A stretch of 64,000 bases of DNA. Source: Escherichia phage BF15. A model generated the notes under the pieces. The model saw only the letters and a program-made list of their open reading frames with translations, was not told the origin of the DNA and made no database searches. Position numbers and translations under genes: made by a program. This document shows, in pieces, positions 1 to 53,070 of the stretch; the first letter of the stretch is position 1, and every line of letters begins with the position of its first letter. The stretch is from sequence record MW822007.1; one strand, written 5' to 3'.

Positions 1-287
1 ATTGTATTCTGTCGTTTAGCACCAGTTTGTTTAAAGTCATGATTGTCGATTTGATCGGTACGAGCAACTCCGAATGATGATTTAATCTTAGCTTTAGATC
101 CTTTAGTTATAGAAATAAACATCTCGGAAGACCCTTTCTTAAAGTCCGATGCGGATACTTCAACGCCGTTCTTAGCAAGTGACCTCAGAATTGCCTCCGC
201 GTACTCATCATCAAGACTCGCTTGAGTATTAATAACGAATGTCTTTGGTGCAGCCGCTTCATTGATAAATTCTTTGAAAGTTTTCAT
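1..287 (-). CDS. internal-protein-like capsid-targeted protein (partial; 3' end lies beyond window start)
   Basis: Minus-strand ORF with ATG at 287..285 preceded by SD AGGAA; N-terminus MKTFKEFINEAA resembles the T4 internal-protein capsid targeting sequence; absent from ORF track because truncated. Confidence 0.6.
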   Translation of the reverse strand, partial: MKTFKEFINEAAAPKTFVINTQASLDDEYAEAILRSLAKNGVEVSASDFKKGSSEMFISITKGSKAKIKSSFGVARTDQIDNHDFKQTGAKRQNT

Positions 288-298
288 TTTATTTTCCT
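250..298 (-). repeat. repeated leader module (RBS + capsid-targeting N-terminus), copy 1
   Basis: About 45 nt nearly identical to 589..632 (gcttcattgataaattcttt.aa.gttttcattttatt). Confidence 0.8.
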
Positions 299-317
299 AA
301 TTAATTTTGATGAGATA

Positions 318-347
318 ATAGTACAACAACCCTATTTAAAAGTAAAC
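318..347 (-). promoter_or_regulatory. T4 early-type promoter (GTTTAC-N18-TACTAT) for partial IP-like gene
   Basis: Minus strand reads GTTTAC (342..347), 18-nt spacer, TACTAT (318..323). Confidence 0.45.
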
Positions 348-620
348 TCATTTTAAATAAATTGCGTATTTTTTATAACCCGCTGACTCATGACGAAGAC
401 CCTTATCATTAGCAAAACGCTCAATGTTGTTAATTTGATTCTGGTCAAGTTCAGAGATGTCAAACACGAAAAAGTTACGTTTGTTACCAACTGTTACATA
501 GTCAGTTAAATCAATATCATATAGGTAATTGATGTCAGCAATCAAAGTCTTGACAGCTTTGCTAATTTTTACTTTTTCGTTAAAAGCAGCTTCATTGATA
601 AATTCTTTAAATGTTTTCAT
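348..620 (-). CDS. internal-protein-like capsid-targeted protein (about 90 aa)
   Basis: ORF track 348..632 begins at a TTG; ATG at 620..618 with SD GGAG gives MKTFKEFINEAA, the same leader as the neighbouring ORF; position next to 57B matches T4 ipI. Confidence 0.6.
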   Translation of the reverse strand: MKTFKEFINEAAFNEKVKISKAVKTLIADINYLYDIDLTDYVTVGNKRNFFVFDISELDQNQINNIERFANDKGLRHESAGYKKYAIYLK

Positions 621-632
621 TTTATTCTCCAA
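589..632 (-). repeat. repeated leader module, copy 2
   Basis: Direct repeat of 250..298 with about 4 mismatches. Confidence 0.8.
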
Positions 633-656
633 TCACTCATTTGTTTTGATAGGGTA

Positions 657-686
657 ATAGTATCATAACTAAAACCCCATGTAAAC
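657..686 (-). promoter_or_regulatory. T4 early-type promoter (GTTTAC-N18-TACTAT) for IP-like gene
   Basis: Minus strand reads GTTTAC (681..686), 18-nt spacer, TACTAT (657..662); same architecture as 318..347. Confidence 0.45.
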
Positions 687-698
687 AGCTTTGTGAAA

Positions 699-1395
<697 letters not shown>

Positions 1396-4722: not shown

Positions 4723-6433
4723 TAACCTCAACTGGTTTGTTGGTGTTGTTGAAGATAGAATGGACCCATTAAAATTAGGTCGTGTTCGTGTTCGTGTGGT
4801 TGGTCTGCATCCACCTCAAAGAGCGCAAGGCGACGTAATGGGTATTCCAACCGATAAATTGCCATGGATGTCAGTTATTCAACCTATAACTTCTGCAGCA
4901 ATGTCTGGAATTGGAGGTTCCGTTACTGGACCAGTAGAAGGAACTAGAGTTTATGGTCATTTTTTAGACAAATGGAAAACTAACGGAATTGTCCTTGGTA
5001 CTTATGGCGGAATAGTTCGCGAAAAACCTAATAGACTTGAAGGATTTTCTGACCCAACTGGACAGTATCCTAGACGTCTAGGAAATGATACTAACGTATT
5101 AAACCAAGGCGGAGAAGTAGGATATGATTCGTCTTCTAACATTATCCAAGATAGCAATCTAGACACTGCAATAAATCCCGATGATAGACCGCTATCAGAG
5201 ATTCCAACTGATGATAATCCAAATATGTCAATGGCTGAAATGCTTCGCCGTGATGAAGGATTAAGACTAAAAGTTTATTGGGATACTGAAGGATATCCGA
5301 CAATTGGCATTGGCCATCTTATCATGAAGCAGCCAGTTCGTGATATGGCCCAAATTAATAAAGTTTTATCAAAACAAGTTGGTCGTGAAATTACCGGAAA
5401 TCCAGGTTCTATTACAATGGAAGAAGCGGTAACTTTATTTGAACGTGATTTAGCTGATATGCAACGTGACATTAAATCACATTCTAAAGTTGGCCCAGTT
5501 TGGAAAGCAGTTAATCGTTCTCGTCAAATGGCATTAGAAAATATGGCATTTCAGATGGGTGTTGGCGGTGTAGCTAAATTTAACACAATGTTAACTGCTA
5601 TGTTAGCCGGAGATTGGGAAAAAGCATATAAAGCCGGTCGTGATTCATTGTGGTATCAACAAACAAAAGGCCGTGCATCCCGTGTTACCATGATTATTCT
5701 TACAGGCAATTTGGAATCATACGGTATTGAAGTGAAAACGCCAGCTAGGTCTTTGTCTGCAATGGCTGCTACTGTAGCAAAGTCTTCTGACCCGGCTGAC
5801 CCTCCTATTCCGAATGATTCGAGAATTTTATTCAAAGAACCTGTTTCTTCATATAAAGGTGAGTATCCGTATGTTCACACAATGGAAACTGAAAGCGGTC
5901 ATATTCAGGAATTTGATGATACCCCTGGGCAAGAGCGATACAGATTAGTTCATCCGACTGGAACGTATGAGGAAGTATCACCATCAGGAAGAAGAACAAG
6001 AAAAACTGTTGATAATTTGTATGATATAACAAATGCTGATGGTAATTTTTTGGTAGCCGGCGATAAAAAGACTAACGTCGGTGGATCAGAAATTTATTAC
6101 AACATGGATAATCGTCTTCACCAAATAGATGGAAGCAACACAATATTTGTGCGTGGCGATGAAACCAAGACAGTTGAAGGTAATGGAACTATCCTAGTAA
6201 AAGGTAATGTTACTATTGTAGTTGAAGGTAATGCTGACATTACAGTTAAAGGAGATGCTACCACTTTAGTTGAAGGAAATCAGACTAATACAGTAAATGG
6301 AAATCTTTCTTGGAAAGTTGCTGGGACAGTTGATTGGGACGTTGGTGGTGATTGGACAGAAAAAATGGCATCTATGAGTTCTATTTCATCTGGTCAATAC
6401 ACAATTGATGGATCGAGGATTGACATTGGCTAA
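4706..6433 (+). CDS. 5: gp5 baseplate hub / cell-puncturing spike with lysozyme domain
   Basis: 575 aa; central lysozyme-like segment (GYPTIGIGHL); C-terminal VxGxxxxx beta-helix repeats; length identical to T4 gp5. Confidence 0.95.
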   Translation: MEMISNNLNWFVGVVEDRMDPLKLGRVRVRVVGLHPPQRAQGDVMGIPTDKLPWMSVIQPITSAAMSGIGGSVTGPVEGTRVYGHFLDKWKTNGIVLGTYGGIVREKPNRLEGFSDPTGQYPRRLGNDTNVLNQGGEVGYDSSSNIIQDSNLDTAINPDDRPLSEIPTDDNPNMSMAEMLRRDEGLRLKVYWDTEGYPTIGIGHLIMKQPVRDMAQINKVLSKQVGREITGNPGSITMEEAVTLFERDLADMQRDIKSHSKVGPVWKAVNRSRQMALENMAFQMGVGGVAKFNTMLTAMLAGDWEKAYKAGRDSLWYQQTKGRASRVTMIILTGNLESYGIEVKTPARSLSAMAATVAKSSDPADPPIPNDSRILFKEPVSSYKGEYPYVHTMETESGHIQEFDDTPGQERYRLVHPTGTYEEVSPSGRRTRKTVDNLYDITNADGNFLVAGDKKTNVGGSEIYYNMDNRLHQIDGSNTIFVRGDETKTVEGNGTILVKGNVTIVVEGNADITVKGDATTLVEGNQTNTVNGNLSWKVAGTVDWDVGGDWTEKMASMSSISSGQYTIDGSRIDIG

Positions 6434-29184: not shown

Positions 29185-29609
29185 TGCTTCTGATCCCTGA
29201 AACTCATGAATTAGTTCTCGAGAATGTCGAAGCACTTATTCCTGAAGCACAGGGTCGCTTTGACGAATTGTCTTCTGCTTTAAATAAAGACGATATAAAT
29301 ACAATTGTCGAGAATATGCTTGATGATGAAACCGATTTAGCAGTTGCATTAGCTTCTATTAATGAAAATATGCCGTTAAATGAATTCATTGTTAAGCATG
29401 TTTCAGCTCGTGGTGAAATTACACGTACTAAAGACCGCAAAACACGCGAACGTAATGCATTTCAAACCACTGGGCTGTCTAAAGCAAAACGTAGACAAAT
29501 TGCTCGCAAAGCTACCAAAACGAAGATTGCCAATCCAGCAGGTCAATCTCGTGCTCAGCGTAAGCGTAAAAAAGCTCTTAAACGCCGTAAAGCATTAGGA
29601 TTAAGCTAA
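29184..29609 (+). CDS. 68: gp68 prohead core protein
   Basis: 141 aa, length and synteny as T4 gp68; basic C-terminus. Confidence 0.85.
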
Positions 29610-30247
29610 TGAATGAACCCCAATTACTAATTGAAACTTGGGGTCAACCTGGCGAAATTATTGATGGTGTGCCAATGCTTGAATCCCACGATGGAAAAGA
29701 CTTAGGTTTAAAACCTGGTTTATACATCGAAGGAATATTCATGCAAGCAGAAGTCGTCAATAGAAATAAACGTCTTTATCCAAAACGCATATTAGAAAAA
29801 GCGGTAAAAGACTATATTAATGAGCAAGTTTTAACTAAACAAGCTCTCGGAGAATTAAATCATCCTCCACGCGCTAATGTTGACCCGATGCAAGCCGCTA
29901 TCATTATAGAAGATATGTGGTGGAAAGGAAATGACGTATACGGACGAGCTCGTGTTATTGAAGGTGACCATGGTCCTGGAGATAAATTAGCAGCTAATAT
30001 TCGTGCCGGATGGATTCCAGGAGTTTCTTCTCGTGGATTAGGTTCATTGACTGACACAAATAAAGGTTATCGTATCGTAAACGAAGGATTCAAATTAACT
30101 GTAGGTGTTGATGCAGTATGGGGTCCAAGTGCTCCAGATGCATGGGTAACTCCTAAGGAAATTACCGAATCACAGACGGCGGAAGCCGATACAAGTGCCG
30201 ATGACGCCTATATGGCTCTCGCAGAGGCCATGAAAAAAGCGTTATAA
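29609..30247 (+). CDS. 21: prohead core scaffold protease
   Basis: 212 aa, length and synteny as T4 gp21. Confidence 0.9.
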   Translation: MNEPQLLIETWGQPGEIIDGVPMLESHDGKDLGLKPGLYIEGIFMQAEVVNRNKRLYPKRILEKAVKDYINEQVLTKQALGELNHPPRANVDPMQAAIIIEDMWWKGNDVYGRARVIEGDHGPGDKLAANIRAGWIPGVSSRGLGSLTDTNKGYRIVNEGFKLTVGVDAVWGPSAPDAWVTPKEITESQTAEADTSADDAYMALAEAMKKAL

Positions 30248-30277: not shown

Positions 30278-31087
30278 ATGCTTAAAGAACAACTGATTGC
30301 TGAAGCGCAAAAAATTGATGCTTCCGTTGCTCTTGATAGTATTTTCGAATCAGTTAATATTTCTCCGGAAGCAAAAGAAACTTTCGGCACTGTATTCGAA
30401 GCTACCGTCAAGCAGCACGCCGTTAAATTAGCTGAATCTCATATCGCTAAAATTGCTGAAAAAGCAGAAGAAGAAGTAGAAAAAAATAAAGAAGAAGCCG
30501 AAGAAAAAGCTGAGAAGAAAATCGCTGAGCAAGCTTCTAAATTCATCGACCATCTTGCGAAAGAATGGCTCGCTGAAAATAAATTAGCAGTTGATAAAGG
30601 CATCAAAGCCGAACTGTTTGAATCCATGCTTGGTGGATTAAAAGAGCTCTTTGTTGAACACAACGTTGTTGTTCCAGAAGAATCAGTTGATGTTGTGGCT
30701 GAAATGGAAGAAGAGCTGCAAGAACATAAAGAAGAATCAGCTCGTCTGTTCGAAGAACTCAATATGCGCGACGCATATATTAATTATGTGCAGCGTGAAG
30801 TGGCATTGAGCGAAAGTACTAAAGATCTGACTGAGTCTCAAAAAGAAAAAGTCTCTGCTCTGGTCGAAGGTATGGATTATTCAGATGAATTCTCAAATAA
30901 ATTGAGTGCCATCGTAGAAATGGTGAAGAAGTCTAATAAAGATGAAAGCACTATTACTGAGGGTATAAATACTCCTGATACTGAAGCAGCCGGACTGAAT
31001 TTCGTCACTGAAGCTGTAGAAGATAAAGCTGCACCTGGTGCAGAAGATATTGTAAGTGTATATGCGAAAGTCGCATCTCGTTTCTAA
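30278..31087 (+). CDS. 22: prohead core scaffolding protein
   Basis: 269 aa highly charged alpha-helical protein; length and synteny as T4 gp22. Confidence 0.9.
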   Translation: MLKEQLIAEAQKIDASVALDSIFESVNISPEAKETFGTVFEATVKQHAVKLAESHIAKIAEKAEEEVEKNKEEAEEKAEKKIAEQASKFIDHLAKEWLAENKLAVDKGIKAELFESMLGGLKELFVEHNVVVPEESVDVVAEMEEELQEHKEESARLFEELNMRDAYINYVQREVALSESTKDLTESQKEKVSALVEGMDYSDEFSNKLSAIVEMVKKSNKDESTITEGINTPDTEAAGLNFVTEAVEDKAAPGAEDIVSVYAKVASRF

Positions 31088-48883: not shown

Positions 48884-48913
48884 ACTATAACACAACACGA
48901 GGGACTTGTAAAC
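48884..48913 (-). promoter_or_regulatory. T4 early-type promoter (GTTTAC-N18-TATAGT) for 96-aa ORF
   Basis: Minus strand GTTTAC (48908..48913), 18-nt spacer, TATAGT (48884..48889). Confidence 0.5.
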
Positions 48914-50970
48914 TACATCTTGAACTTTTTAGACATTCCATTGATGTTAACCAAAGAAGCCAAGATTTGAGAAACTTCGTTTTCCTCTTCTTTTGATTCT
49001 TCTACAAGGAATTGATTAAACCCAGCCATTGGACGAACTTCACCAGTTTCCATTAGATGGTCGCCATCATATACCGATTCTTCTAATTGTTCAGAAGGAG
49101 GAACGATTGTGCCTTCGATTAGATACTTGTTATAAGCAGTTTCTTTCATCATGTACGTACTCACTTTATTAATCTTCAGCAAAATTCCACGTGGTAAAAT
49201 AACTTCAGCTTCTGATGGAAATCCTGATAAATGTCCTGGAACGATAACTTTGATTCGCTCAGCTCCTTTAATTACCATACCCACGCTAGTTTCAGCATCT
49301 TCATTGGCATACGCAGAATGACTACCCATATGCATTAAATCTTCAGCGTCAACAGAACCTTCTCCTTCACCAGAAAATACTGCACCGGAATCATCTAGAG
49401 CCATATAGTTTTTACCATACTCACCGAAGATATTTGGTTTAAGCGATGTGGATACGAAGTTCTTGAAGTAGAACATTTTATTTTCAATATTATGACGTAA
49501 AGTTTTAAAGGTAACTTCTTGTCCACGGTAAAGTGTAGTTCCTGGAGGAAGAACTGATCCTTTGGCAAAGGCAGAATCCATTGTCTCGATGTGTTTAATA
49601 GCTCGTTCCATATATTCTTCACGGGTAGAATCCGGTTTACCTAAAAGGAATGAGTTCATTTCAACATATGAATCTGCACAATAATCTTCAATTACATCAG
49701 ACTCAGCCTGAGTTAATCCTTTTGGAGTTACTTCAGTACTTGCATATTCATACGCTTGAGAAGCAGACTCATTAATCAATTTATAAACGCCATTCATGAC
49801 AAATTGAACAATAGCTACCTTTTCATCTGGTGTGGCTTTAGAACCTTTAACTAAATCATTGACAATTTTCTTAATAACATCAAAGCTATTAGAAATATTA
49901 ATGTCAGCAAGATCACTTAAAATTTTATCAGTTTTATAATCAAAAAATTCTTTATTCTTTAAATATTCTTGAGAACCTTGATATGATATATCGCTCTGTA
50001 ACTTGATAGATGGATCACGTAAACGCGCATGAGCCAATGCAATATGATTTCGGAAGCTTTCTAATTCATAATCACTAGATTTAAAACGGGAAGCACTCCT
50101 CATACCACCGATAGCTCCTTTGCTGAAGTTTGAACCAACCTGAATAACGCCAGAGTTCATTGGTCCTTCTGCTTTATATACCGGAACTTTAGATTCAAAC
50201 TCTTGATATTTCTTAGCAGCGAAGCTATCACCCTGAAGTGAAGCATCGACAGTAGAGTATTGAGCTTGTGCTGCTAATCGACGACTAATTTTAGTTTTCT
50301 GAATAACAGCTTGATCCGTGCGCTTATCATTTTCTAAAGCAATAGAAGCAGCAACAGCGACAGCTTTAGGAACAGCATTACCTGTTTTAACGTCTACATA
50401 AACATCACCAACCTTTGATTCAACTTTTGTGAATAACTCAGTTGAAATAGGAGGTACACCTGGAATGTCTTCTAAATTAGCATTTTTACGGTAAACCATA
50501 ATATATGCGTACTTTTTATCGTAATCCCAGATTTCCTTTAAAAGAACATATCGACCTGCTCCTTTAGTACGTACTAAACGGTCGGCAATAACTTGCATTT
50601 GACGAGCTGCACCATTTGTTTTACTCTTTAGTACGCGGAATAAGCATGCGTCAATTTTATACTGTTTCATTGTTTGAAGAGCAGTATCAAAAACGGCATT
50701 AATGACGCCAATTGGATTTCCACCTAAGTTTTTAAGTTTAACTAATGATAGTTTCTCATTAACACCTATCATTACGATATGCATCATTTTATCGCCTGGC
50801 TTAACGTTTTTATTTGTATCACCGCCAGAGGTGTATGTACAAAATCTAAATCCAGGAAGCACACTTTCTTCGCCTGCTTGAATAGCAAAAATTTGAGGTA
50901 TTTTATGCTTAGGATTTAAGTTAACAACCGGCGCCGAAGCGCCGTCAAATAATTCTGTAATAAGTTCCAT
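48913..50970 (-). CDS. Alt-like ADP-ribosyltransferase, paralog A
   Basis: 685 aa (T4 Alt 682 from memory); ART-like R/STS/E motifs (LYRGQ, VSTSL, SEAEVILPRG); N-terminal 240 aa strongly similar to the adjacent paralog. Confidence 0.85.
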   Translation of the reverse strand: MELITELFDGASAPVVNLNPKHKIPQIFAIQAGEESVLPGFRFCTYTSGGDTNKNVKPGDKMMHIVMIGVNEKLSLVKLKNLGGNPIGVINAVFDTALQTMKQYKIDACLFRVLKSKTNGAARQMQVIADRLVRTKGAGRYVLLKEIWDYDKKYAYIMVYRKNANLEDIPGVPPISTELFTKVESKVGDVYVDVKTGNAVPKAVAVAASIALENDKRTDQAVIQKTKISRRLAAQAQYSTVDASLQGDSFAAKKYQEFESKVPVYKAEGPMNSGVIQVGSNFSKGAIGGMRSASRFKSSDYELESFRNHIALAHARLRDPSIKLQSDISYQGSQEYLKNKEFFDYKTDKILSDLADINISNSFDVIKKIVNDLVKGSKATPDEKVAIVQFVMNGVYKLINESASQAYEYASTEVTPKGLTQAESDVIEDYCADSYVEMNSFLLGKPDSTREEYMERAIKHIETMDSAFAKGSVLPPGTTLYRGQEVTFKTLRHNIENKMFYFKNFVSTSLKPNIFGEYGKNYMALDDSGAVFSGEGEGSVDAEDLMHMGSHSAYANEDAETSVGMVIKGAERIKVIVPGHLSGFPSEAEVILPRGILLKINKVSTYMMKETAYNKYLIEGTIVPPSEQLEESVYDGDHLMETGEVRPMAGFNQFLVEESKEEENEVSQILASLVNINGMSKKFKM

Positions 50971-50973
50971 GAT

Positions 50974-53070
50974 TTATCCTTGAACGAACTTGTAAGGCAT
51001 GTTTGCAATATCTATGCAAGATGCAATAATTCCAAGAGATGATTCTACTTTTTGTTTAACATTTGATGAAACAAATGATGCAAAGTCAACTCTGTCTTCT
51101 ATTTCAATATCACCTGTCATTGCAACTACTTCGCCGGTTTCCATTAGACGGTCACCGTCATAAATTACTGATTCGGTGAGTTCTTCCGTAGTCATAACTT
51201 CAGCTTGAATGAGTTTTGTATTATTAGATGTTGTTCCGTCATTATTAGAAGCATCAGTTATTTTATTAACTTTGACCATCAATCCGCGTGGTAGAATAAC
51301 TTCAGCTTCTGTTGCTATTCCGAGACTTCCTGGATATACAACATTAACTTTATGAGCTCCATCAATTGCCCATCCTATTTGAACTTTAACGTATTCAGGA
51401 TTTTCTTTATACGCTCTTATTTCGTTTGGATTAATAGTTATTCCTTCTTCATTTTTATCAACTGTCAATTCATTACGAGCTTCTGGTTCTAAAAGACCAA
51501 TACCAGCATGTGTAATTCCAAAACGTCCAAAAATGATAGGAGTTAAAGAAGTAGATACAAAATTTCTGAAATAGAACACTTTATTTTTAACTAGTGCTTC
51601 GTATATAGGAGCAGTCATGCTTTGAGCACGATAAACTGTAATGCCTTCTGGTATACGGTCACCATTTTCAAAAGCTGAATCTAAATTATTTATCGCAGAT
51701 TCAATTTCTTTTTCACTCATTACATCATATCGTTCTGGATTGTAGCGGCCTAAAAGAAGATTATTGATGTCAGTATATCCTGATCCACAATACTCTCTAA
51801 TGCCGCGCTTTTGCGATGGAGTATATTTAGAACCATCACGGGCAATAGTAATATCAATCATTGGACCTGCACCAATTCCAGAAAAGCTATAAATCATTCG
51901 TTTGAGGAATTTAGTTTTTGCTGCGTTCCAGGAATTTTTAGTTATTTCTTCCCAGACTTCATCTGGCTGCCCTTTACGAGTTTTATTATGTTTATCAAGC
52001 CAATTATCTTTATATTCTTCAAAGAATTTATTAACAGCTGCTGCGTATTTCTCTAAACATTTTATTGAAGTAGTTGGTTCATTTTTGATCGCGTTAAAAA
52101 TTACATCTTTAATTTTTTCAGAAACTTCATCAACCTCACTTTTTGGAAAGAATTTATAGTCATAGTGAAGTTCATCTGCGGTTCCTTCGGCAATGATTTT
52201 TGCTGCCTTAGTTTTAGAAGCTAATGAATTAATTCCAAGCTTCATTTCTTCTGCTTCGGGAATTAAAGGAGCAGTAGCAGGTTTATTGAAATTAGCTGCA
52301 GTAGATTCATACTTCTGGAATAATTCGCTTTCAAATCTAGAAGATTCTAATGATTGACTTTGCGCAATTGCTCTACGGGAAATTTTAACTTTAACAATAA
52401 CAGCTTGGTCAGAACGTTTATCGTTTTCTTGCGCAATAGATGCTGCAATTGCCTCATTTTTAGTTACTTGAGCTCCAGTATCTTTATTGATATAAACATC
52501 GCCGACTTTCGATTCAACTTTAGTAAAGAGCTCGGTACTAATTTCTGGAACTCCTGGAATGTCTTCTAATGATACATTTTTGCGATGTATAAGAATATAT
52601 GCATACTTTTTATCGTAATCCCAGAGTTCCTTAAGAAGGACGTATCTGCCACCTGAACGACTACGGATAAGTCTATCAGCAATAACTTGAATTTGTCGAG
52701 CTTGACCAGCAGTTTTAGACTTAAGAATACGAAGCATGCAGGCATCAATTTTATACTGACGCATCGTTTGCATCGCAACAGTAAAAACTGAATTGATATA
52801 ATTAATTGGGCTTGGACCGAGACCTTTTAATTTAGCAATTGAACCTTTAGCAGTTAATGTAAAAGGAACAATATGCATCATTTTATCGCCCATTTTTAAA
52901 TCACGGTTAGTATCACCTCCAGATGTATAGGTACATAAACGAAAGCCTGGTTGTTCAATTGCGTCATCGACATGAACTGAAAAAATTTGTGGTATTTTCT
53001 TCTTTGGATTTAAGTTTGTAATCGGAAGAGTAGTATCTTCGTCAAATAATTCTGTAATAAGTTCCATCAT
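50974..53070 (-). CDS. Alt-like ADP-ribosyltransferase, paralog B
   Basis: 698 aa; ART-like motifs VYRAQ, VSTSL, TEAEVILPRG; N-terminus MELITELFD... near-identical to paralog A; TATAAATA 21 nt upstream. Confidence 0.85.
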   Translation of the reverse strand: MMELITELFDEDTTLPITNLNPKKKIPQIFSVHVDDAIEQPGFRLCTYTSGGDTNRDLKMGDKMMHIVPFTLTAKGSIAKLKGLGPSPINYINSVFTVAMQTMRQYKIDACMLRILKSKTAGQARQIQVIADRLIRSRSGGRYVLLKELWDYDKKYAYILIHRKNVSLEDIPGVPEISTELFTKVESKVGDVYINKDTGAQVTKNEAIAASIAQENDKRSDQAVIVKVKISRRAIAQSQSLESSRFESELFQKYESTAANFNKPATAPLIPEAEEMKLGINSLASKTKAAKIIAEGTADELHYDYKFFPKSEVDEVSEKIKDVIFNAIKNEPTTSIKCLEKYAAAVNKFFEEYKDNWLDKHNKTRKGQPDEVWEEITKNSWNAAKTKFLKRMIYSFSGIGAGPMIDITIARDGSKYTPSQKRGIREYCGSGYTDINNLLLGRYNPERYDVMSEKEIESAINNLDSAFENGDRIPEGITVYRAQSMTAPIYEALVKNKVFYFRNFVSTSLTPIIFGRFGITHAGIGLLEPEARNELTVDKNEEGITINPNEIRAYKENPEYVKVQIGWAIDGAHKVNVVYPGSLGIATEAEVILPRGLMVKVNKITDASNNDGTTSNNTKLIQAEVMTTEELTESVIYDGDRLMETGEVVAMTGDIEIEDRVDFASFVSSNVKQKVESSLGIIASCIDIANMPYKFVQG

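Follow-up and report, generated by a model that had tools for sequence, protein, structure and literature searches.

The window analysed here (a 64,000-nucleotide stretch of DNA from Escherichia phage BF15, sequence record MW822007.1) begins with two small genes on the minus strand. From gene order and homology, this region is the 57B-proximal polymorphic IP1 locus of Tequatrovirus, carrying ip9 and ip7, and we are largely confident that both genes encode packaged internal proteins in a locus subject to shuffling. The initial annotation had described two adjacent minus-strand ORFs with a common leader and unrelated cargo, and this description was upheld. Both ORFs begin with MKTFKEFINEAA; the one at 348–620 is complete and the one at 1–287 is cut by the window edge. 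Past residue 12, BLASTP gave no alignment between the two proteins at E ≤ 100, and they belong to separate families, phrog_7673 and phrog_2667.

The ipI slot and its two genes

Identity of the first 1,400 bases of the window to many Tequatrovirus genomes, W143, SF2-1 and IME340 among them, was 97–98%. Phage records matching these bases numbered 700, and 49 of them covered most of the query. By sequence, the window is a Tequatrovirus genome. Its minus-strand genes run, 5' to 3', in the order 4, 2, 3, 1 (dNMP kinase), 57A (Pfam GP57, E 1.4e-50) and 57B, followed by the two small IP ORFs. In T4, the order after 57B is ipI, trna.4 and the tRNA cluster, and the IP ORFs of the window occupy the ipI slot, from 57B to trna.4. 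When this slot was compared across T4-like genomes, as the initial annotation had proposed, it was found to hold ipI in T4, Ip9 and Ip7 in the window and four internal proteins in UFV-AREG1 (ipI, a 90-aa ORF that is Ip9, a 102-aa ORF that is Ip7 and a 74-aa ORF). IME340 carries the same two ORFs as the window after 57B, both annotated as "internal head protein". The pair of Ip9 and Ip7 is common to at least 49 database phages, and the IP array is bounded on its left by the conserved 57B. A terminator scan of positions 1–1400 gave no terminator between the cassettes.

Both proteins match named internal proteins of T4-like phages. The complete ORF was assigned to ip9 because its product is 93% identical to RB15 Ip9 (UniProt Q38376, P0008) and 80% identical to the ip9 product of VR7; it matches phrog_7673, "internal head protein", over positions 1–90 of 90, leader included (E 1e-54). 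A mechanical call had placed the start of this gene at a TTG at position 632. This start was rejected because a correctly spaced GGAG precedes the ATG at 620 and the homologues all begin with MKT. The truncated ORF was assigned to ip7 because its product is 95.8% identical to that of phage T2 ip7 and 93.7% identical to CC31 Ip7; identity to P0018 (102 aa) is 99%. It matches phrog_2667, also "internal head protein" (E 1.2e-38), and its last 7 residues lie outside the window. The full length of 102 aa was judged from the complete homologues IME340 gp128 and P0018. Both genes are routinely annotated as "internal head protein". The coordinates of all the features are given in Table 1.

Table 1. 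Features of the IP1 locus and related genes in the window
Feature	Position	Strand	Basis or remark
ip7, Ip7 precursor, first 95 of 102 codons	1..287	-	3' end beyond window edge
Repeat copy 1 (RBS and leader codons)	252..297	-	46-nt reference copy
Capsid targeting sequence of Ip7, codons 1-10, MKTFKEFINE	258..287	-	alignment with T4 IPI/IPII/IPIII leaders
Shine-Dalgarno AGGA of ip7	295..298	-	read from sequence
Early-type promoter-like site of ip7	318..347	-	GTTTAC 347-342, 18 nt, TACTAT 323-318
ip9, Ip9 precursor, 90 aa, complete	348..620	-	ATG at 620, TGA at 350-348
Repeat copy 2 (RBS and leader codons)	585..630	-	42/46 identical (91%) to copy 1
Capsid targeting sequence of Ip9, codons 1-10, MKTFKEFINE	591..620	-	alignment with T4 IPI/IPII/IPIII leaders
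Shine-Dalgarno GGAG of ip9	627..630	-	about 6-7 nt 5' of ATG at 620; inside repeat 585-630
Early-type promoter-like site of ip9	657..686	-	GTTTAC 686-681, 18 nt, TACTAT 662-657
57B (Acb1 anti-CBASS phosphodiesterase family)	699..1154	-	Pfam PF23474 Acb1, E 7.8e-60; T4 57B position
Gene 21 prohead protease	29609..30247	+	Pfam Peptidase_S77, E 1.5e-111
Gene 22 scaffolding core protein	30278..31087	+	Pfam T4_CASP, E 1e-89

The common leader and the elements upstream

According to a review of the work of L. W. Black, the first 10 residues of T4 IPIII are enough for packaging, and mutagenesis mapped targeting to residues 4 and 7 of the capsid targeting sequence (CTS) and processing to residues 8 and 10 (PMC9026906). 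The leader directs proteins to the gp22 assembly core, and foreign proteins fused to the CTS are packaged, processed and injected (PMC9026906). T4 IPII and IPIII start with MKTYQEFIAE/A (the slash marks the cleavage site) and T4 IPI with MKTFKEFTSTTTPVSTITE/A, which has the N-terminal MKTFKEF and ends in ITE/A. The initial annotation had likened the leader in the window to the T4 CTS and its gp21 cleavage context, and the alignment with the leaders of IPI, IPII and IPIII agrees with this. The leader, MKTFKEFINE/AA, keeps F4 (as in IPI), F7, I8 and E10, which is every residue mapped as functional. The I-N-E at residues 8–10 fits the gp21 motif (L/I)-x-E, and the genes for gp21 and gp22 are both present in the window. 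The leader peptide motif was found nowhere else in a six-frame translation of the 64 kb. At the DNA level, the leaders of ip7 and ip9 differ by two synonymous changes in codons 1–10 and a third in codon 11.

Cleavage by gp21 is predicted after Glu10 in both proteins. The predicted mature Ip9* comprises residues 11–90 (80 aa, 9.3 kDa, pI 8.2) and the predicted mature Ip7* residues 11–102 (92 aa, 9.9 kDa, pI 9.7). Both forms, at 9–10 kDa and basic, are near IPI* and IPII* in size and charge. We infer that Ip7 and Ip9 are packaged, cleaved and injected; the searchable literature gave no direct report of either protein in virions, cleaved or injected. In the proposed mechanism, both proteins would be made with the 10-residue CTS at the N-terminus, and during head assembly the tag would steer each precursor into the gp22 scaffolding core. 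The gp21 prohead protease would then cut after Glu10 and free the small, basic Ip9* and Ip7*, which would remain in the head with the DNA and enter the host along with it in the next infection. Since they would be injected together with the DNA, they would be present before any phage gene expression.

A near-identical repeat of about 45 bp had been noted around the two starts. The repeat is real and its length is 46 nt, but its second copy had been placed slightly off, at 589–632 instead of the corrected 585–630. With 42 of 46 positions identical (0 expected by chance), this direct repeat includes codons 1–12 as well as the Shine-Dalgarno sequence. A degenerate pattern of it matched only twice in the 64 kb, at the two copies, and not at all in 100 shuffles. 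Further upstream, exact matches to GTTTAC-N18-TACTAT were limited to the two sites before ip9 and ip7; with up to one mismatch allowed, there were 5 sites in the window compared to 0.59 expected. The sequence 5' of ip9 is near-identical, through the -35, to the region upstream of T4 ipI, and the 5'UTR of ip7 (ATCTCATCAAAATTAATTAGGAAAATAAA) is nearly identical to that of T4 ipI. The GTTTAC of ip7 directly adjoins the TGA stop codon of ip9. Both promoters are putative, being consensus matches only, and their activity is presumed. Early promoters alone fail to explain the supply of a protein that is needed late, for head assembly, and this speaks against the reading given above. Late promoters (TATAAATA) would account for a late supply of internal proteins.

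The two upstream sites differ in their capacity to fold. The -10 of the ip9 site lies between the arms of a weak inverted repeat of 7 bp (ATGGGGT/ACCCTAT; z -1.19, with a DNA fold of -7.4 kcal/mol), compared to a 10-bp stem around the -10 of the T4 ipI promoter (z -2.05). At the ip7 site, the left arm is TAGGGT, which elsewhere pairs with ACCCTA, and the right arm is TCTCATC, which elsewhere pairs with GATGAGGT. The arms are chimeric, and a stem-loop of the PeSL (promoter-early stem-loop) type was rejected for this site since none forms (z 0.00). From their sequence, the chimeric arms look like the product of a crossover within the -10 loop.

Cargo turnover and cargo function

Leader-bearing ORFs were searched for in 36 IMG/VR loci around 57B homologues and in reference loci. 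This sample held 79 such ORFs, including the two in the window, and clustering of their cargo parts (BLASTP, E ≤ 1e-3) gave 22 families. Most of the ORFs immediately follow 57B; others form a second group 2–4.5 kb further on. When the 85 nt upstream of each member were compared, the 57B-adjacent promoter (…CACAAAGTTGTTTACAT…) was found to track position and not cargo: it precedes Ip9 in the window, ipI in T4, Ip7 in locus L039 and a fourth family in L009 and L040. The initial annotation had placed each cassette behind its own early-type promoter. This holds for both copies in the window, each with an exact match, but elsewhere a cassette may lack a private promoter. In L016–L021, Ip9 has no promoter of its own and is translationally coupled to the upstream IP (…GAATAAAATG), and in L032 and L033 Ip7 overlaps the 57B stop (…CCTTAAATG).

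Several loci carry traces of rearrangement. The promoter element of L022 contains a tandem duplication of GATACTATTACCTCATCAA, that is, a duplicated -10/right-arm scar. In VR7, an Ip7 homologue lies in the other IP locus (e-denV-ip10-ORF-ip7-vs.8). OLB35 has a leaderless chimeric remnant that joins Ip7 residues 29–72 to Ip9 residues 56–90, implying that in an ancestor the two genes stood in the opposite order. The cassette system that had been suggested, in which a conserved promoter and leader are joined to swappable cargo, is borne out by the 22 cargo families among the 79 ORFs and by the recombination scars in the promoter/leader elements. These sequence patterns support a model in which homologous recombination in the conserved 5' elements shuffles the cargos. 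The substrates would be the repeated promoter/5'UTR/leader segments of about 70–100 bp before every cassette, and recombination between them would add, delete and reorder cargos. The downstream gene trna.4, which does not encode an internal protein, is preceded by the same promoter/UTR element without the leader, and would therefore provide the right-hand homology for the array. This promoter/5'UTR part alone may be a further recombination substrate.

Another explanation is that the leaders are kept only as recombination homology, and that Ip7 and Ip9 are unpackaged, ordinary early proteins of the cytoplasm. Each gene does have an early-type promoter before it, leaderless homologues of Ip9 exist, and IPIII lacking its targeting sequence is still active in the host cytoplasm (Srikant et al. 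2022, PMC9391042). However, the amino acids of the leader are conserved over the 79 ORFs despite synonymous changes, and those conserved include exactly the targeting and cleavage residues. In addition, trna.4 has the promoter/UTR element but lacks the leader. We therefore regard this explanation as very improbable, and keep to the reading that both proteins are packaged by means of the leader.

The two cargos are predicted to fold. The AF2 model of Ip9 (pLDDT 89.8) consists of the leader helix followed by helix-strand-strand-helix-strand-strand, and that of Ip7 has a core at residues 14–82 (pLDDT 83–91; strand-helix-strand-strand-helix-strand) with a basic, disordered C-terminal tail. Searches with the cargos gave sub-threshold noise only against Pfam, no match against PADLOC and nothing meaningful against PDB sequences. 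Foldseek against BFVD gave one significant match, a 535-aa viral protein in which the same C-terminal domain is probably present. Neither cargo resembled IPI* or a known anti-defence protein by sequence or fold, and the literature searched held nothing relevant on a function for Ip7, Ip9 or Ip8.

An anti-defence role is the accepted reading for the internal-protein class. The GmrSD that is inhibited differs between Ip1, Ip2 and Ip3, without cross-protection, and no other Ip has an identified target (Silas et al. 2025, PMC12373910). By analogy with these three, the most likely role of Ip7* and Ip9* would be to bind a host nuclease that attacks the incoming glucosyl-hmC DNA, and so to block it. 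For Ip7 and Ip9 themselves, we put a specific anti-restriction role, argued from this analogy, at about even chances.

It is also conceivable that Ip7 and Ip9 are mainly structural, filling the head as basic proteins that neutralise the charge of the DNA or aid core assembly without a specific host target. The predicted mature forms are basic, and T4 internal proteins number about 300 copies each and associate with DNA in low salt; head assembly is also reduced in IPIII mutants (PMC9026906). We consider this role unlikely, as an arms race would account better than a generic role in charge for the extreme cargo turnover, with its 22 families, and compact, folded domains are predicted for both cores. 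Furthermore, Ip1–3 all have specific targets (PMC12373910), and the Ip9 cargo is found in phages without the T4 head system.

The last point comes from relatives of Ip9 outside the T4-like phages. Homologues of its cargo (residues about 19–90) were found as free-standing proteins of 72–74 aa in Kagunavirus JSSK01, Klebsiella phage D1 and Seuratvirus SHIN8, with 44–53% identity in Kagunavirus and Seuratvirus, which are siphoviruses. These proteins have no leader; their starts coincide exactly with the end of the T4-type leader and linker, and they match positions 19/20–90 of phrog_7673. A profile search added 30 further matches, all short and leaderless, most of them 72–74 aa and several of them truncated or frameshifted fragments. 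In Kuttervirus maane, the last 75 or so residues of gp082 (755 aa) are homologous to the Ip9 cargo and form a C-terminal domain. In JSSK01, a divergent intergenic region of 480 bp holds a sigma-70-like promoter site, TTGCAC-N17-TACTAT, and the first gene that follows it encodes the homologue. These relatives fit a 10-residue tag that serves as a portable address put on early proteins that are otherwise ordinary. For Ip7, a profile search run exhaustively over 1.84 billion representatives gave only T4-like Ip7 clusters and one further match, P0061. This is a 664-aa tandem-repeat protein and was judged spurious.

Kagunavirus, Seuratvirus and Kuttervirus are not known to be hmC or glucosyl-hmC phages and stand outside the T-even group with hmC-DNA. 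This hints that the target of Ip9 need not be a glucosyl-hmC-specific enzyme. Tentatively, the Ip9 cargo could be a mobile counter-defence domain delivered in three ways: pre-loaded in the head in T4-like phages, as a leaderless immediate-early protein in Kagunavirus and Seuratvirus, and as the C-terminal domain of the 755-aa protein in Kuttervirus. Phages that differ in DNA chemistry would all be served by the cargo, so that it would be expected to act on a defence or host factor of broad action and not on a type IV enzyme specific to glucosyl-hmC. If true, this would be a natural example of T4-like phages recruiting ordinary early genes to the injected arsenal by fusion to a 10-residue tag.

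The same relatives bear on what Ip9, and possibly Ip7, acts on as an injected counter-defence protein. One alternative is that the target is not a type IV enzyme of the GmrSD type but a defence or host factor acting regardless of DNA modification. The leaderless siphovirus homologues, the position of the JSSK01 gene directly after its promoter site, the Ip9 domain at the end of the Kuttervirus protein and the presumably hmC-free DNA of these phages are all in its favor. On the other hand, all three T4 internal proteins with known targets act on GmrSD-family enzymes (PMC12373910), and homologous small binders can retarget. We hold this alternative to be less likely than not.

Relation to known systems

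Repoila, Tetart, Bouet and Krisch reportedly described the polymorphic IP1 locus of T-even phages, including proteins named Ip7 and Ip9, in 1994 (EMBO J 13:4181). The locus in the window shares with theirs the slot, the leader, the repeated promoter/leader elements, the proteins and the shuffling hypothesis, and there is no substantive difference. Comeau et al. 2014 (PMC4122927) attribute to Repoila 1994 the hypothesis that shuffling within the IP palette could alter host range. Arbiol et al. 2010 (PMC2839356) describe the IP loci as polymorphic and as containing PeSL-like elements, put the known IP variants at more than 30, and propose that the elements may underlie the plasticity of the loci.

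Compared to T4 IPI/IPI*, the inhibitor of GmrSD from E. coli CT596, the window has the same locus, a homologous promoter and 5'UTR, the N-terminal MKTFKEF and likewise a small, basic mature protein; delivery by injection is presumed for both. T4 IPII and IPIII inhibit the GmrSD of ECOR21 and ECOR17, respectively. Their 10-residue leader, MKTYQEFIAE/A, has the same cleavage register as MKTFKEFINE/A. In contrast to ip7 and ip9, they are encoded at a second IP locus (denV-ipII-ipIII-e), and their cargos are unrelated to Ip7 and Ip9. The IPII/IPIII class has been demonstrated to be active in the host cytoplasm.

The PeSL cassettes of RB49 and phi1 are similar in that a repeated promoter element flanks small accessory ORFs and is a recombination site for modular shuffling (PMC2839356). 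The IP-locus elements are analogues and not homologues of PeSL, being based on T4 early promoters and having weaker, AT-rich stems (Arbiol et al., PMC2839356). As to the stem-loop, the ip9 copy has a weak stem and the ip7 copy none, and the stem is longest in T4 ipI. Unlike PeSL, the IP cassettes also have a common coding leader.

The locus, the leader, both proteins and the shuffling model have been known since 1994, and the finding in the window is a rediscovery. A small addition concerns the Ip9 cargo, which siphoviruses carry leaderless and which forms the C-terminal domain of the 755-aa Kuttervirus protein; the leaderless relatives offer a concrete handle on how injected effectors are recruited. 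As a discovery the locus counts for little, but it is of moderate value as a pointer to two candidate injected effectors. Beyond the T4 proteins with known targets, more than 20 other cargo families, including Ip7 and Ip9, are candidates for time-zero counter-defence.

Ip7 and Ip9 cargo outside the window

In phage VR7 an Ip7 homologue of 48% identity is found at the second IP locus, with denV/ip10 on one side of it and vs.8 on the other, which shows that one cargo family has been transferred between both IP loci. The OLB35 'ip7 protein', from an UNVERIFIED record, consists of Ip7 residues 29-72 joined to Ip9 residues 56-90 without a leader and is probably the remnant of a deletion. The chimera points to an Ip7-then-Ip9 order, the reverse of that in the window. 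On a contig resembling Citrobacter phage Moon, Ip7 is preceded by an element with a tandem duplication of GATACTATTACCTCATCAA, which looks like a scar of recombination within the promoter.

Ip9-type cargo was also found in other settings. Seuratvirus SHIN8 encodes a 74-aa protein that matches the Ip9 family (phrog_7673) in the cargo part only and does not have the targeting leader. In this siphovirus it is annotated as 'internal head protein / head and packaging'; given the cargo-only match and the missing leader, this label was probably mis-transferred from the T4-like family. Kuttervirus maane gp082 (755 aa, phrog_3867, unknown function) has a C-terminal Ip9-like domain, and its N-terminus, MAIPSFLNFLEES, loosely resembles an aromatic-x-x-F-L-x-E leader. 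The metagenomic protein P0043 (86 aa) bears Ip9-type cargo after a divergent leader, MKFNEFLTEA, which is shorter by one residue and could inform on the sequence variation tolerated in the targeting sequence.

Leader-like genes beyond the tRNA region

The 187-aa 'hypothetical protein' IME340 gp132 begins with the leader-like N-terminus MKTYAEFLTEAAKL, and the protein recurs in three other compared loci. A further family, of 154-205 aa, starts MKTYNEFLTE/NES. Together the two suggest a third, unannotated leader-gene site, 2-4.5 kb past the IP1 locus (ip9 and ip7) and just beyond the window.

Features in the window and in compared loci
Feature	Location	Strand	Details
57B (T4 name)	window 699-1154	-	Acb1 anti-CBASS match, PF23474, E 7.8e-60; directly upstream of IP array
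Alt-like ADP-ribosyltransferase paralogue, tandem pair	window 48913-50970	-	685 aa
Alt-like ADP-ribosyltransferase paralogue, tandem pair	window 50974-53070	-	698 aa
IME340 gp132	L001 7680-8243		beyond tRNA region; phrog_2280, unknown function
187-aa leader-like protein	L009 9465		
187-aa leader-like protein	L014 9174		
187-aa leader-like protein	L040 9165		
SHIN8 74-aa protein	L007 1492-1716		
maane gp082	L005 467-2734		
VR7 Ip7 homologue	L045 1880-2800		
OLB35 'ip7 protein'	L008 2375-2608		
GATACTATTACCTCATCAA x2	L022 ~6170-6250		

57B and the Alt-like pair

The strong Acb1 match of 57B places the IP array beside another counter-defence gene. The labels 'RNA ligase' or 'hypothetical' persist for this gene in many database records. 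Both Alt-like paralogues have the N-terminus M(M)ELITE|LF, a sequence that fits a short propeptide cut by gp21. T4 itself has one alt gene.
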